NCBI GenBank assembly: GCA_000004985.1
Contig: GG738860.1
DNA from: Naegleria gruberi
Lineage: Eukaryota
Length of the DNA: 64,000 bases
Reading direction: 5' to 3' (one strand)
Made by a program: the position numbers and the translations under genes. Below the pieces are notes generated by a model. It was given only the letters and a program-made list of their open reading frames with translations. It ran no database searches and was not told where the DNA came from. Each line of letters begins with the position of its first letter. The stretch's first letter is position 1. Positions 27,798 through 34,486 of this stretch are shown here, in pieces.

Positions 27798-29625
27798 TTA
27801 ATCCGATTTCAGCTTTTTGGTCTCGCTTGGTTCAGCATCTTCTAATTTTCTCTTCTTATCAGAGGATTCAGCAAGTGCTGATGTATCAACATTTGGTAAA
27901 ATAACTCCTTCTTCGTTTCCATCTACATTAGTGGTAAGTCTCCTCTTATTTTTAAGGAGAATGGTATGCATTTCTGCATCGTGATGTTCTTCGTGTGAAC
28001 AATTTTCCCCGTGTACATGGACGTGTGGGTCTTCTTCTTCATCTAACTCGATAGGATCTTCAAAATTCTTCCAACTCTCTTCCAAAGCCATTTCTTCATC
28101 TGTTAATAAACAAGAGTCCAACTTGGCCGAGATTTCCTTCTCAGAAATATCCATACCAATGAAAACTAGTTCTTGTCTTCTATCTCCCCACTTTTCATCC
28201 CAAACTTTTGCTAAACTATTATCATCTTTTGGCCAATCTTCCTTCGGTATACTAGCCCAGAATCTACCACCAGTTTCAATTCTTAGTGTGTCACCAGCTT
28301 GTGACCAAAGTCCATATATATCCATCTTAGTACAAAGCCAGAAGAATCCTTTACTTCTCAAAACACCATCAAGAGCTTCTTCATCTATTATTTGTTAATT
28401 TCGAATTTTGAAAGAATGATTATTACTTACTATGAATGAATTGATCTGAAAGACGTTTTGGATGGAAAGGTCTTCTTCTTCTATATGCAAAACTTGTAAT
28501 ACCGTATTGTACACTCTCTGGGACGTGATTACCTTGAAGTTCTTGCAACCATCCAGCAGATTGTTGAGCTTCATTGAAGTCGAATATGTTTGTATAGAAA
28601 ATGCAATCAAGAGGAACTTTTCCGAATTTTGTTTTGATAAGTTTTGCTTTAGGATTCAAGTGACGAATAGTTTGTTCCAACAATCCTAATTCATCGGATG
28701 TAACAAGATCTATTTTGTTCAAAATGATAACATTAGCAAATTCAATTTGATCCACCAACAAATCTACAACTTGTCTGTCATCATCCTCGTCATTTTGTAA
28801 GTTTTTATCTTTCAATGTCTTTCCACTTGTATAATCTAACAACCAGTTATAAGAATCAACAACAGTTACCATTGTATCCAAACGAGCAAGGTTTTTGAGG
28901 GTAACATTTTTCACTGGAGCGACTGATTCTGTTGTTGTTCCATTATTTTCCTCTTTTGATTTATGTGCTTGGTTCAGGAAGTCATCAACAGAAAACGTAA
29001 AAGTTTCAGCAACTGGGAGAGGTTCACTGATTCCACTATTCCGAAATATATCATCAACAAATTGTTATTAGACACTTACCTTGATTCAATTAATAGGTAA
29101 TCAAATTTCTTGTCGTTAGCCAATTTGGCAATTTCTTGTAACTAAAAATTTTAGTTTTTGAAACAATTATTGTCGTACTTACTAAATCATCTCTCAAGGT
29201 GCAACAAATACAACCATTAGCCATTTCTATTAATTTTTGTTCCTTTTTCTCATTCTTTTTGTTGTGATTTGTTAATCATCAACTTGTCGTTACAAAAAAC
29301 CTACCTTCAAGTGATTGATATGAACGAGCTTTGCATCAATGTTAATTTCACTCATGTCATTGACAATAACGGCTACTTTATATCCTTCTTGATTATTTAA
29401 AACATATTTCAACAATGTTGTTTTACCTGCTCCCAAAAATCCGGAAAGAACTGTAACAGGTAGTCTTTGATCATCACTAGCCACACCTTTTCTAGTAGGA
29501 AAAAGGCTTCCAACTATACTATTAATATTTGTTGAAGTACTTGATGATATTTGGCTATCCGCTGCGCCAGTGTTTGCATCAGCTGAACAAACGGTTGCCG
29601 ACGCATCAACAGTGGAGTTGCTCAT
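27798..29625 (-). CDS. COG0523 (CobW/ZNG1/CBWD-type) zinc-associated GTPase with five exons: 29625-29305, 29242-29183, 29141-29080, 29035-28431 and 28383-27798.
   Basis: P-loop [16 protein letters not shown]. Also [31 protein letters not shown], the CobW_C motif LRSKGFFWL, and a His-rich tail [15 protein letters not shown]. All introns are GTAGGT/GTAAGT...AG. Confidence 0.8.
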
Positions 29626-30247
29626 TTTTTTTAATGTTTAAAAAAGGTAAAAAACAAAAACTGCGTTTCAATAGCTCCAAAATTCAATCCAGCACAACCT
29701 AGGTATTGTGTGAATCTGTAATCTCCTCTCAATCTTCTATTTAACATTAAGGGTGAACTATTTCTGTTCAGCACGTTTTCTGGTTAACCACATGTTAAGA
29801 AATATTTAGAGGAAAGTTGTGCGGATGTTTTGAAATGATCTCAATTTATGTTATCTCCTCTAACCTTTTCACTTGTGGTGTTATAGATCAAACAGGTTCA
29901 TAATTGTTCTTTGAAGCAGAAGTATCGAAAGAGTTTCATTGGATTTAATGTTGTTGGTTCATCACGCATAAATCAAATCGTCAGACGACACCTCTTTGCT
30001 TCTTTTATCCAAGAGCTTTATCCATTCCTAATATGAAACATTGATAACAAACCACAAGCGGGACCTAAATTTTCTTACTCATTCTCAATCTATGTTGGAA
30101 TGTACAATTGTTGTAAGTGGTTCAAAGAGTTCCTTAACAACAACCTATTTAAAACACATTTTGCCACTATTTTTACAGCAAAGAAAGTTCATTTCAGATT
30201 TTATTTTTAATATTTTTATTTTAAAATTAAAAAATTAGCAAAACACC

Positions 30248-32732
30248 ATGTCCAGCAGTGCTAATCAACCTTTCGTAATTGATCCATCAACAATTGTTGT
30301 ATCCGATAACGAAACTGATTTGGATGAAACAATTAAATCCGAGGTTTTGTTGTGGTATCAATCATTTAAATCATTAAAGAATGCTACTCGACAAATGATC
30401 GAAAGAAGTCACTTGAATCCTCTTCTTAAAGTACCTAGAAAGGAGTTATTAAATGTGATGGTTAACTTGAATTTATTGGAATTAAATACTCAAGAAAAGA
30501 TCATAATGTTTGATTTGAATGATTCAATCTTTTCAGTTATTTATCCCGAAACTTATAAGCCAATGGAAGGAGAAGGCCTTTTAGTTACTAGTGATGATCC
30601 TGTTCTTGAAAAGGTTGTTGCAAAGGCTAATAGATTTATTCAAAGAGATAGTGTCAGTATGACATCACCATCCATTGCAATTTCTGTACTTTTATCAAAG
30701 ATTATTGAAATTTTCATCACCAAATCATTTAATGAGCTTACTCCTGGTGTTGTAAATGCCACTGATGATTTATTTGCTTCAAAACTTGATGAATTGGACA
30801 AAGGAGCCTCTAAACTTCTTATTAGCTCCGATGATGAAGATGATGATGAGGATGATGATGAAGACTTTATTCAAACTCCAACACCTCAAAAGGTGAATAT
30901 TTCCGAAAAGAATATATTTGATGTACAAGAGGAAAAGGATATGTCAGAGCTTATTGCAAAGCTTCAAAAAATGTCACAAGATGAAGAATTTACAATGTTT
31001 ACAAATGCATGGGGTAAGTTTCCTTTGAATTCTTAAGCTTATCTTTTTTAGGATCTTTGGCTGGCTATGTAGAATATAACTTGTCAGCAAAGAGTAAACT
31101 GTTGACTGAATTGAAATTTATTAATTCATTGAATGGAAGAAATGGATGGAAAGTGGAATTAGTAGACGAAAATATTTTTGTTTGGACTGTGCATTTGTAT
31201 AATTTCCCAACTTCATCAACAATTGCATCTGGATTACGTTCTTTCCAAGAAAAGTTCAACATTGGTAATGGAGACATTGTGTTGGAAGTTCGTTTTGCTA
31301 ATTATCCTGAAGAGCCTCCACACATTAGAGTTGTATCACCAAGAATTCAATATTTGACAGGTTTAGTACAATTTGATGGAAGTCTTTGTGTTGATTTCTT
31401 AACAAGAAATAATTGGGCTGAAAACAGATGCTTATCTATGGAATCAATCTTTTCTAAAATCAAATCATCGCTCATTGAAAATGATGCCTGCATTGATTTG
31501 AGAACATTCAAACCTTATGATGTCAAGGCCGCTCTTAATAGCTATGTCAGACATACAAGAGATCAAGTCATTCAATCAGGAACCAAGTTCAACGAAAAGT
31601 ATTACATTTTCTCATCTGCTTTCAGTAAGCGTTGTTTTGATGTCAAGGTTAATCTTAGTGCTCTTGGTAAGTTTATCGTAGCAAGTAGAATTTATAGTTA
31701 ACATTTTCAGAAAAGGGTAATAAGGTGTTGTTGCCACCTGAAGCAGCTGATAAGATTTTCAACGATCCTAATGTTGAATTCCCTCTTATTTTTGAAATTC
31801 AAACCAAACATTCTAGAGTATATTGTGGTGTCAGTGGTATGTTGTTTCATAATTTTATATTTCTCTAATTTCAATTTTTTAGAATTTACCAGTCCTTCCA
31901 ATAATATTGTTGTTCCAGAATGGTAAGTAAGATGATTAATTTCATTCAATTAACCTGTATCAGGATGTTTAAGAGTTTGTTTATCACAGAAGGAGCTAAA
32001 GTTAGCATTAGATGTGTAAAGCTTCTTCCTGCATCTTATATAAAGATTCAACCTCACAGCAAGACTTTCTATAATATTGAGAATTATAAGCAAGTATTGG
32101 AGACCACTTTATCTAGATATTCTTGTGTTGCTGAAGGTCAATCATTGCAAGTATACGATGAAAGTGATAAAATTCACATGATTGAAATTATGGAAACTCA
32201 ACCAAGTACTGCTGTATCAGTCCTTGCTGAATCATCAGGTTTCATGGAAGTTGAAATTGATTTTGTTCCTGCTCTTGACTTGTATGATCCAAGTGAACTC
32301 ACTGAAATGCAACAACAAGAACAACAAAAGAGATTGCAAAAGAAGGAAAAACAAAAGTTGGATTTCACCAACAAGACTTTGAAAGAAAGAGAAGAAAAGA
32401 GACAAAAATTGCAAGAACTTCTTGCTACTATTGGAAAGGACACCAAGACAGTATTATTCAAGATCAAGTTCCCTGATGGAAGCTCAGTTAGTCAAAAATT
32501 CCCAGTCACTGCTTCATGCTCAACTCTTTATGACTTTGTTGAATGCATTCAAGAAAAGGATTTGTGGAGACCATTACCATACACAACTAGCTCAGACCTT
32601 CAAATAGCCACAACCTATCCAAAGATTGACATTCCTTGCAACCAAACACTCTCTTTCGAATCTGCTCGTATTACTGGACAAGCTGCTGTTGTTGTCACAC
32701 AACAAGACAGATTCCCTCCAGAAAATCAGTAA
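30248..32732 (+). CDS. Fusion protein: an unknown N-region, an E2/UBC-like domain, a UFD1 domain and a C-terminal UBX domain. Exons are 30248-31013, 31052-31666, 31711-31836, 31883-31922 and 31964-32732.
   Basis: The UBC-like part is GWKVELVDENIFVWTVHL...YPEEPPHIRVVSPRIQYLTGLVQFDGSLCVDFL...WAENRCLSMESIFSKIKSSL. UFD1 is FSKRCFDVKVNLSALGEKGNKVLLPPEAADKIF...RVYCGVSEFTSPSNNIVVPEWMFKSLFITEGAKVSIRCVKL...IKIQPH. The UBX part is TVLFKIKFPDGSSVSQKFP...TTYPKIDI. The UBC-like and UFD1 N-terminal parts share one continuous ORF. Confidence 0.7.
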
Positions 32733-32734
32733 TT

Positions 32735-34486
32735 TTATTTTTCATATTTTCTATAGTGTGTAATTCTATTTTCCAAATTTGTTCTAATTTGAGATATTTC
32801 TTGTAAATTATGGTCCTCTGTCAACATTTCAATAAATGATAGACAGTTGTTTTCATCTGTTGGATTTGCTAAAAATCTAAAAACAATAGATGAATCTGGA
32901 AATATGGATACCATTGCCCTAACACTTGAATGAAATAAGGAGGCAAATTTCTTAGAGTACATTGTATCTTCGTTTGAATTAGTTTGATATTGGAGAATTC
33001 TATTGACCTCATTGCCAATCTCTGTCATTTTTCTGAATGATTCTTCATTAATTAATCTCTTGAAAACAAGGCATGTAAACAAGTCAATTTCATCTCTTCC
33101 CTAATTGATAATGGTCAATTAAGCTATCAAATATATTTGATTTTTAACACTTACAATATGTGGATACCAAGAGAGCTGAACAAAAATATACATGGCATGG
33201 ATAAAACTCTCTCTTGACTCGAGTAGATCAAACAAGCATCCAAGTAAACAGCTATCATCCAGCAAGGAGTTTGTTAACTTTGGAATGTCTACAACGTTAG
33301 CAACAATTTTCACAAGAATAATTCTTCCCTTATCTGCAAGCATATTCCACAAATATCCCAACAACACTTGAAATAGGGCATCTTGTTCAGCATTCATTGA
33401 TTTGGAAAGGTATTTCTGTAAAAGTCCCTTTCTTGATAATTCTAAAAGGCAATACAATGAATATTTTACAATCAATCCTTGCTGATGATAATCACAATCT
33501 TCATCAAGAATATCAACCACTTCTTCTTGTAAATTTCTTGCTAGTTCTTTAGATAACTTGTCGACCTCTTTCAGTAAACGACTGATAATTGCACTAATTG
33601 ACCTTCCACCCAGAAACCAATCGCTCAACATTTTTGTATCCTCACTGATGGTCGCAGCCAATTCAGAATATAATCGAACAATGAATCCATTCACACTCAA
33701 AATGTCATCTAGAATCTTTATGGAACCTTCATTAGGATCCAATGTCAAGTAATCAGCAAGTAAATCCAAAATTCCAAAGTTTACAAAATATCTTGAATAT
33801 TCCTTCACATCTTGGTCCAATAAAACTGATAATGAAAAAACAACATCTCTTATCAGTTTTAAATCAACACAATGTTCATGTGTCTTTAAACATTGAAATT
33901 CTGTTTGCAACTTGTCCACCACAATTTGCAGGTATTTCACTTGTTCACTCATTTCAGTAAATTCAAACATTCCTGAAAGAATTTCTTCCACCTTTCTAAA
34001 TAGAAATCCTTCGTCCTTGTGGTTCATAATCAAATTTGTCTGATTGATAGGGATCAAGTTAGGCAACAGAGCTGGTAGATTAACGCACATTTCCTCAAGC
34101 ATGAGAAAGTACTGATCCTCATACTCTCTATCAAAGTCACTTCTATCCTCTCTATATTCAAATATTGTCCTTAACTGTTTTCTCAATTGATTCGTTACTG
34201 ATTGTTGCTCCTCATCAAGAATGCACAATTTAGAGTGAATAAGTAATGAGTGACATATAGCAATGTCCCTCTCCAATCGATCAGAGTACGTGTTGGAAAT
34301 GATGGATTCTAGGGAAGAATGATCTAAATTACTCTGATCAAACGGATTGCAATCTATTTCTGCATTTTCTGGGGGATTTTCCATGTGATGGAGTTGGGCT
34401 AGTAAGAGATCTTTTGGAGGAAGGCGAGAAACTGCTTCTAGGGCACGTTGCTTTCTTTCATTGAGGATTGTTCGCTTTTCGTTCAT
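32735..34486 (-). CDS. Hypothetical, probably helical-repeat protein of about 566 aa. Exons are 34486-33155 and 33100-32735.
   Basis: The intron is GTAAGT...CAATTAG (54 nt) and is in phase. I recognise no family. Confidence 0.5.

Follow-up and report, generated by a model that had tools for sequence, protein, structure and literature searches.

Does a single gene of Naegleria gruberi encode a protein in which a ubiquitin-conjugating (E2)-like domain, a UFD1 domain and a UBX domain are joined, and, if so, would such a protein act as an adaptor of the Cdc48/p97 unfoldase, as a ubiquitin-writing enzyme, or as both? The question is raised by the region 30248-32732 (+) of a 64,000-nucleotide stretch of contig GG738860.1 (hereafter the window), for which an earlier note, made from the sequence alone, had proposed this fusion. 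In N- to C-terminal order, the predicted product comprises an N-terminal α/β region, an acidic linker, a domain of the ubiquitin-conjugase (UBC) fold resembling UBE2Q, a UFD1-type UT3 domain, a helix of about 50 residues and a UBX domain. The analysis presented here favors, as the probable if not firmly settled answer, a genuine single gene whose product is a Cdc48/p97 cofactor, with its own helix-UBX segment covalently tethering UT3, and which belongs to an old lineage of UFD1 paralogues.

A single gene for an E2-like, UT3 and UBX fusion

The most immediate objection to the fusion is that adjacent E2, UFD1 and UBX genes were wrongly merged by assumed splicing, and a prokaryote-style gene caller indeed splits the locus into three open reading frames (ORFs) in a metagenomic copy (L004). 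However, the E2-like domain and the beginning of UT3 lie in one exon, and the ORF 31057-31701 by itself contains the entire E2 domain together with the initial 18 residues of UT3. Further, in Willaertia magna the E2-like domain, UT3, helix and UBX occupy a single intron-free ORF of 527 codons (L003 8784-10367), which makes the fusion independent of splice prediction. All four junctions predicted in the window can be aligned without indels to this ORF and three further orthologues; after splicing, the reading frame is restored and runs collinear with all four. The annotated N. lovaniensis protein is equally 771 aa long; in its genome one ORF covers the E2-like domain and half of UT3, and a second the remaining UT3 and UBX. 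The fusion is additionally found in transcriptome ORFs of other protists. In a more distant relative (39% identity; metagenome 3300037860), a 513-codon ORF encodes the E2-like domain, UT3 and helix, and the next called gene, with the UBX, begins 26 nt beyond, a spacing consistent with a short intron. An artefact of annotation is, on this evidence, effectively refuted, and the earlier assertion of a single gene is borne out; the search of related genomes that the note had put forward as a check finds the same fusion in N. lovaniensis, Willaertia magna and a wider protist family.

The gene model consists of five exons, whose spliced coding sequence of 2316 nt specifies 771 aa and ends with a TAA stop at 32730-32732. 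The four introns are all of the GT-AG type and measure 38, 44, 46 and 41 nt; as none of these lengths is a multiple of three, unspliced read-through would break the frame. Exon 1 (30248-31013, +) derives from an ATG-initiated ORF at 30248-31036, encodes aa 1-255 and ends in phase 1. It is separated by intron 1 (31014-31051, +; 38 nt; GTAAGT...TAG) from exon 2 (31052-31666, +), which was described previously as a continuous exon and which, like all the peptides then quoted, is present as described. Exon 2 holds the UBE2Q-like UBC domain (aa ~260-420, nt 31063-31545), a 22-aa linker and, in its tail, the first 18 residues of UT3, placed by the UFD1 alignment from aa 443 (nt 31612) onward. After intron 2 (31667-31710, +; 44 nt; GT...AG), exon 3 (31711-31836, +) supplies the Nn subdomain of UT3 (KGNKVLLPPEAADKIF...YCGVS), as delimited by Pfam UFD1_N1. 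Intron 3 (31837-31882, +; 46 nt; GT...AG) is followed by the 40-nt exon 4 (31883-31922, +), in which UT3 goes on (EFTSPSNNIVVPEW), and by intron 4 (31923-31963, +; 41 nt; GT...AG); the junctions at each of the four introns are collinear with those implied by the orthologues. Finally, exon 5 (31964-32732, +) completes UT3 up to aa 620 in its first part (31964-32276; with K558, E562 and E611; Pfam UFD1_N1/N2), and then encodes a long helix rich in K, E and Q between UT3 and UBX (32277-32444, +; aa 621-676) and the UBX domain (32445-32732, +; aa 677-771), whose strand 1 reads KIKFPDG and whose TTYPK loop has its YPK at nt 32616-32624.

The window has a GC content of about 33%, and 30248-32732 has the look of a eukaryotic gene whose introns are very short. 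That the locus is bacterial or viral was considered and rejected in view of the 33% GC, the short GT-AG introns and the synteny with a Naegleria chromosome. The metagenomic copy mentioned above (L004 1-3210; ENA ERZ929261, run ERR1078381) is 99.7% identical over 3.2 kb to window positions 30059-33252, an identity which indicates that the same species was present in the sample of run ERR1078381.

A UFD1-type UT3 domain without the canonical Cdc48-binding tail

Both halves of UT3 are recovered well above their Pfam cut-offs: UFD1_N1 matches aa 449-536 (67.4 bits against a cut-off of 29, E 8e-19) and UFD1_N2 aa 539-617 (62.5 bits against 37, E 4e-17). A search against solved structures aligned human UFD1 with aa 443-627 (E 4e-28), the start of this match falling within exon 2. 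Structural comparison with Foldseek, using the AlphaFold model of the N. lovaniensis orthologue, retrieved the UFD1 structures 2yuj and 1zc1 with template modeling (TM) scores of 0.80 and 0.75, respectively, at a predicted local distance difference test (pLDDT) of 75-88 for UT3. In human UFD1, mutation of E84, K139, E143 or D186 cripples ubiquitin binding or the unfolding activity of p97-UFD1-NPL4 (bioRxiv 10.64898/2026.03.13.711538). Their counterparts E503, K558 and E562 are identical and E611 is a conservative replacement, so that, with human L53 (see below) counted in, four of the five tested ubiquitin-contact residues are kept.

Canonical UFD1 resembles the window protein in possessing both UT3 Pfam halves, in the fold and in these ubiquitin-contact residues, which, excepting L53, are conserved or conservatively replaced. 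It differs in what surrounds the domain. The UT3 of the window protein is flanked N-terminally by the E2-like domain and C-terminally by the helix and UBX, and the protein is devoid of the UT6 tail, of SHP1/SHP2 and, apparently, of the NPL4-binding motif. The segment after UT3 is taken up by helix and UBX, with no UT6-like tail to hold an NPL4-binding motif. No strict or loose match to the SHP motif FxGxGxxL was detected in the window protein or its orthologues; the motif is also absent from 15 of 16 other fusions tested, as against its presence in 36 of 70 canonical-size UFD1 representatives. The contrast drawn in the earlier note between canonical UFD1, which uses SHP motifs, and this protein is therefore upheld, and the absence of SHP motifs together with the presence of a UBX makes an adaptor role at Cdc48/p97 the natural reading. 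The sole SHP case among the fusions tested is that of the dinoflagellate Polykrikos kofoidii (P0031), with an SHP-like FAGVGREV at aa 743 near the C-terminus, which hints that some family members might reach Cdc48 via SHP instead of UBX.

In a neighbor-joining tree of UT3, a clade of 81 canonical UFD1 domains contains no fusion, and the window protein is placed among the other fusions. As a distance tree with long branches, this is weak evidence; it is consistent with the fusions representing one old UFD1 paralogue lineage that is widespread in protists.

A long helix and a UBX domain resembling the FAF1/FAF2 module

The C-terminal domain scores above the curated cut-off for Pfam UBX (aa 677-761; 29.3 bits against 21, E 1e-6). 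When an 11-sequence profile of the helix and UBX was compared with solved UBX domains, it matched UBXN8 (E 1.6e-8), UBXN7 (2.8e-7), FAF1 (3.8e-6) and p47 (6e-5), and additionally UBXN4, PUX1, UBXN2A and UBXN2B, amounting to eight different solved p97-binding UBX proteins. UBXN7, UBXN8 and p47 thus provide the best profile matches to the C-terminal domain, but they carry UBA/UAS/UIM, transmembrane or SEP segments, and none of them has a UT3 or an E2 domain. The alignment with the FAF1 helix-UBX chain (11ta_M) spans both the helix and UBX, with an E-value of 3.8e-6 as compared with 5e-4 for the FAF1 UBX alone. In the AlphaFold model of the N. lovaniensis orthologue, the segment preceding UBX is one long helix (626-671). 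This helix of about 50 residues between UT3 and UBX had gone unmentioned in the earlier note, and it makes the C-terminal half of the protein resemble the helix-UBX strut of FAF1/FAF2.

In FAF1/FAF2, the UBX binds the p97 N-domain and the helix acts as a strut that positions the otherwise floppy UT3 of UFD1 (PMC12965308, PMC12630741); by tying UT3 to the p97 N-domain, helix-UBX speeds unfolding (PMC12965308). The module, also termed UBH-UBX, is conserved across eukaryotes (PMC12630741). With FAF1/FAF2 and their relatives (Ubx2/Ubx3, PUX10) the window protein shares the long single helix directly before UBX. The arrangement differs in that the UT3 of UFD1 docks in trans in the FAF proteins, whereas here it is covalently attached, at the far end of the helix. 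Moreover, UBA, UAS, HUE and LPPEP are all wanting in the window protein; for UBA and UAS, this statement refers to the absence of Pfam matches.

The p97-contacting elements of UBX show a graded pattern of conservation. A basic residue (K/R) in strand 1 is conserved across distant UBX-type members; the loop is TTFPK in the orthologues and FPR in more distant members, with FP[KR] found in most UBX-type members. The K and YPK that the window UBX has within the R...FPR signature would be conservative substitutions. Further, the UBX is 50-58% identical to those of the orthologues, which indicates that this tail is under constraint.

A UBE2Q-like domain with doubtful catalytic competence

The E2-like domain upstream of UT3 can be assigned to a particular family. 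In a phmmer search of solved structures it matches UBE2Q1 (2qgx, E 2.5e-14) and UBE2Q2 (1zuo, E 5e-14) over about 155 residues, and Foldseek with the model of the N. lovaniensis orthologue, which is 67% identical and has a pLDDT of 75-92 in this domain, yields TM scores of 0.85-0.88 to UBE2Q2/UBE2Q1 (1zuo/2qgx). The Pfam profile UQ_con, by contrast, scores aa 332-397 at 22.9 bits, under its cut-off of 27, and for this reason annotations such as 'UFD1' or 'hypothetical' miss the E2 domain. Profile searches, which the earlier note had put forward as a check, therefore place UFD1_N1/N2 and UBX above their cut-offs and leave UQ_con below; all three domain assignments hold, that of the UBC-like domain by virtue of the UBE2Q1/2 matches.

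The likeness to UBE2Q1/UBE2Q2 encompasses the UBC fold at about 30% identity, a catalytic-position Cys, the SP(R/V) that substitutes for HPN, an ARV(D/Q) segment conserved after the last helix, and a long N-terminal extension with an acidic linker ahead of UBC. Cys368 (TGT codon 31387-31389, +), which had been singled out within the peptide GSLCVDFL, does fall opposite the catalytic Cys of UBE2Q1/UBE2Q2 (GGAICMELL) in the alignment. The reported replacement of HPN by SPR is equally correct and turns out to be a trait of the family: VVSPR of the window protein aligns with VVSPV of UBE2Q1, and UBE2Q enzymes in general are without HPN (PMC10971424), SP-x at this place being a trait of UBE2Q/J.

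These features invite a reading in which the domain is charged on Cys368 and the protein operates as a ubiquitin-writing, E4-like Cdc48 adaptor in Naegleria. While UT3 holds a substrate at the unfoldase, the adaptor would lengthen or edit its ubiquitin chains or, like UBE2Q1, attach ubiquitin to Ser/Thr. This reading draws on the aligned Cys and the confidently predicted fold, on the natural lack of HPN in UBE2Q-family E2s, which act on Ser/Thr without an E3 (PMC10971424), and on the retention of the Cys in the window species, N. lovaniensis, three metagenomic relatives and, overall, 29 of 58 family members. The same alignment column, however, has Ala in Willaertia, the closest of the other named genera (FDGTIAPDFL, in a genomic ORF), Arg in Acrasis and Glu in Percolomonas, and the rest of the domain is well conserved in the members without the Cys, Willaertia among them. 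Additionally, the activity of UBE2Q1 depends on a YHW triad of Tyr343, His409 and Trp414, of which Tyr343 is essential for discharge (PMC10971424). The position of Tyr343 is occupied by Leu in the window protein; the alignment ends before the His409/Trp414 segment, which is without an alignable counterpart, and no His or Trp is common to the orthologues in that stretch. The sub-threshold UQ_con score also speaks against an active enzyme. With the Cys retained by no more than half of the family members and Leu in place of Tyr343, E2 catalysis by the window protein is doubtful as far as its residues allow a judgment, and an active enzyme is a possibility to be entertained only tentatively. Hence, the E2-like domain of the earlier note stands, and more specifically as a UBE2Q-like fold, but its catalytic competence is doubtful.

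A probably old and modular protist family

The same five-part layout is found in N. lovaniensis (771 aa, 67% identity), Willaertia magna (765 aa, 58%), two metagenomic relatives and Acrasis kona. To delineate the wider family, a profile from the four-orthologue alignment was run with HMMER exhaustively against 1.84 billion representatives, which gave 4347 hits; among 155 proteins retrieved, 64 combine the E2-like domain and UT3 in one chain, corresponding to at least 64 clusters at 50% identity. Of the entries bearing names, a minority from which the taxonomic picture is drawn, Acrasis kona (annotated 'ubiquitin fusion degradation protein 1'), Percolomonas cosmopolitus and N. fowleri belong to Heterolobosea. 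Others come from the euglenid Entosiphon sulcatum (two paralogues), the diplonemid Sulcionema specki, the dinoflagellate Polykrikos kofoidii and the stramenopile Platysulcus tardus, and the family accordingly extends over several supergroups of protists. Single Trinity/MMETSP transcripts carry the fusion in Entosiphon, Percolomonas, Platysulcus, Polykrikos and Sulcionema, several of the ORFs being complete, and the Entosiphon transcript ORF P0013 includes UBX too. A word-indexed search with a 24-member E2-UT3 profile returned 10 proteins and little taxonomic breadth beyond N. fowleri. Database labels for family members are either 'hypothetical protein' or 'ubiquitin fusion degradation protein 1'.

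What the family members have in common is the E2-like+UT3 core; their terminal parts differ. UBX tails are seen in the Naegleria clade, Acrasis, Entosiphon P0013, P0024 and P0030, and XAF1/TRAF-type zinc-finger tails in P0011, Percolomonas, P0021 and P0023, with Di19 zinc fingers in some sister proteins; the N-terminal domains include WWE, EF-hand and UBA. The sister sub-families (P0011, P0015, P0021, P0023, P0024, P0030) suggest a modular family of ubiquitin-chain readers.

This spread bears on the earlier suggestion of a Cdc48 adaptor of an undescribed type. No description of an E2-UFD1-UBX architecture was found in the open-access text searched, a corpus that did not take in subscription-only papers and about 1.4 million PMC manuscripts; the architecture thus appears, provisionally, to be undescribed, but with at least 64 clusters in public databases it is not a one-off. 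It is conceivable that the E2-like+UT3 pair is an ancient eukaryotic module, possibly dating to the early radiation and lost in animals, fungi and plants, and that in the lineages retaining the Cys, such as Naegleria, it places, by way of UT3-helix-UBX, an active UBE2Q-type E2 on Cdc48, which would write or extend ubiquitin, possibly on Ser/Thr. We regard this larger scenario as unlikely. If it were true, it would predict a 'Rosetta-stone' link between human UBE2Q1/2 and the p97-UFD1 pathway, and the unfoldase adaptor itself would write ubiquitin on the substrate that is being held.

A probable Cdc48/p97 cofactor with a covalently tethered UT3

Under the favored reading of the protein as a Cdc48/p97 cofactor, UBX would dock on the N-domain of the Cdc48/p97 hexamer and thereby replace the SHP motifs and the NPL4-binding tail of canonical UFD1. 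The long helix could then serve as a rigid strut that keeps UT3 above the ring together with the E2-like domain to which it is joined, with UT3 binding the K48-linked proximal/initiator ubiquitin of the substrate. The E2-like domain, on its short conserved linker, would ride along with UT3. It most probably adds a ubiquitin-handling or partner-binding surface and is unlikely to be an obligatory catalytic center; such a non-catalytic role is favored by the loss of the Cys in half of a family that has kept the domain. Docking in the absence of an NPL4-binding tail is not far-fetched, in that plant UFD1 and NPL4 can each bind CDC48 independently (PMC12902296). Nevertheless, the description of the protein as a 'self-contained' Cdc48 adaptor, which goes back to the earlier note, is unproven and would at present be a prediction from its domain composition.

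Several observations weigh against this reading and need to be set beside it. First, the UBX of the N. lovaniensis model (residues 672-771) has a pLDDT below 50. The UBX assignment accordingly rests on sequence profiles, and the 'canonical' β-grasp of the earlier note is upheld by these as a UBX but not, by structure prediction, as a canonical one. Second, the p97-contact loop of the window protein is YPK (in TTYPK) rather than FPR. Third, the features by which FAF proteins engage UFD1 are missing: reading of aa 621-690 showed neither the HUE (QdeaYxxSLxaD) nor the LPPEP motif (motifs from bioRxiv 10.64898/2026.03.13.711538), and A140, R147 and Y162, through which UT3 touches the FAF1 helix, become Q, S and E. 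With the surface for the FAF1 helix not conserved, the helix of the window protein is to be viewed as a positional analogue and not as a demonstrated homologue. Fourth, L53, which human UFD1 needs in order to bind the proximal ubiquitin, is replaced by Ala473, and Ala is found at this position across the window clade and in 35 fusions, as against Leu in 76 canonical UFD1 proteins. Fifth, the zinc-finger sister sub-family is without UBX, so that docking on Cdc48 does not characterize the family in its entirety. Finally, a word-indexed search for a canonical Naegleria UFD1 brought up, among the 120 matches listed, almost only plant UFD1s and one mussel protein; in the literature, N. gruberi appears in a list of species with CDC48, UFD1 and NPL4 orthologues (PMC12902296).

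Some of these points could be taken to mean that the tail is a degenerate, UBX-like domain and the protein a Cdc48-independent reader or scaffold for ubiquitin chains (UT3 plus pseudo-E2) in another pathway. Such a reading would build on the altered loop and the low model confidence, on a phmmer search with the window helix and UBX alone, which found no solved UBX, and on the sister proteins with XAF1/TRAF-type zinc fingers, WWE, UBA or EF-hand instead, of which those with zinc-finger tails presumably serve in another pathway. Against it stand the above-threshold Pfam score and the family profile, with its eight solved UBX proteins and a best E-value of 1.6e-8, as well as the FP[KR] loop and basic strand 1 residue conserved in distant UBX-type members and the constraint on the tail seen among the orthologues. 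On balance, a role unconnected with Cdc48 is improbable, and the Cdc48/p97 cofactor with a tethered UT3 is retained as the preferred interpretation.

All three modules of the protein are known, and it is their combination that is new as far as the literature search goes. The UT3-helix-UBX half amounts to a naturally occurring, covalent counterpart of the mammalian FAF1/FAF2 arrangement reported only in 2025-2026; its conservation as a fusion offers independent evolutionary support for this geometry, which would be simpler to study in a single chain. The substrates and partners of UBE2Q-type E2s are largely unknown. The fusion of a UBE2Q-like domain with UT3 in dozens of protist lineages points to a functional coupling between UBE2Q-type E2s and the recognition of K48-linked chains of the UFD1 type. 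Further, a single orthologous family in which the catalytic Cys has been lost repeatedly provides a natural experiment in how an E2 becomes a pseudo-E2 comparable to ubiquitin E2 variants (UEV-like).

The N-terminal region and the genomic neighborhood

The first 255 residues precede the domains discussed so far. They consist of an N-terminal α/β region (aa ~20-170, nt 30248-30757, +), in which no known fold is recognized, and an acidic linker with a DDEDDDEDDDED run (aa 171-255, nt 30758-31012, +), and the N-terminus is collinear with those of N. lovaniensis (78% identity) and Willaertia (68%). A Pfam scan of these 255 residues gave no match, RWD included, and their AlphaFold model has a pLDDT of 43.7, too low for a fold search. 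In the model of the full N. lovaniensis orthologue the region is predicted with mediocre confidence; its secondary structure there, namely helices, four strands, two helices and a YPxxYKP loop, is compatible with an RWD domain without being diagnostic of it, and comparison of the region with the family's own E2 domain by hhalign gave a probability of 0.1%. That the region is an RWD/UBC-like domain, as in UBE2Q1/2, is thus an unproven proposition. Upstream of the 39%-identity relative (L001 5139-5934, metagenome 3300037860) there are short ORFs like the N-terminal region and acidic linker, e.g., FSIHYPKMFNPTKGEHLV; the N-terminal part is probably conserved in this relative as well and would there be split by introns.

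ARAGORN found no tRNA genes within the 64-kb window. The divergent upstream neighbor of the fusion gene is a CobW-type GTPase (29290-29625, -, and upstream), and a gene with cobW and CobW_C domains (L002 5880-7762) is likewise situated upstream of the N. lovaniensis orthologue, a conserved synteny that marks the window as Naegleria DNA. On the other side, a convergent minus-strand gene (32735-34486; ORFs 32735-33082 and 33119-34486) ends 2 nt past the stop codon of the fusion gene, such that the 3' untranslated regions of the two must overlap. This tail-to-tail layout is retained in N. lovaniensis with a gap of about 3 nt, the counterpart gene (L002 10565-12772) being one without a Pfam domain.

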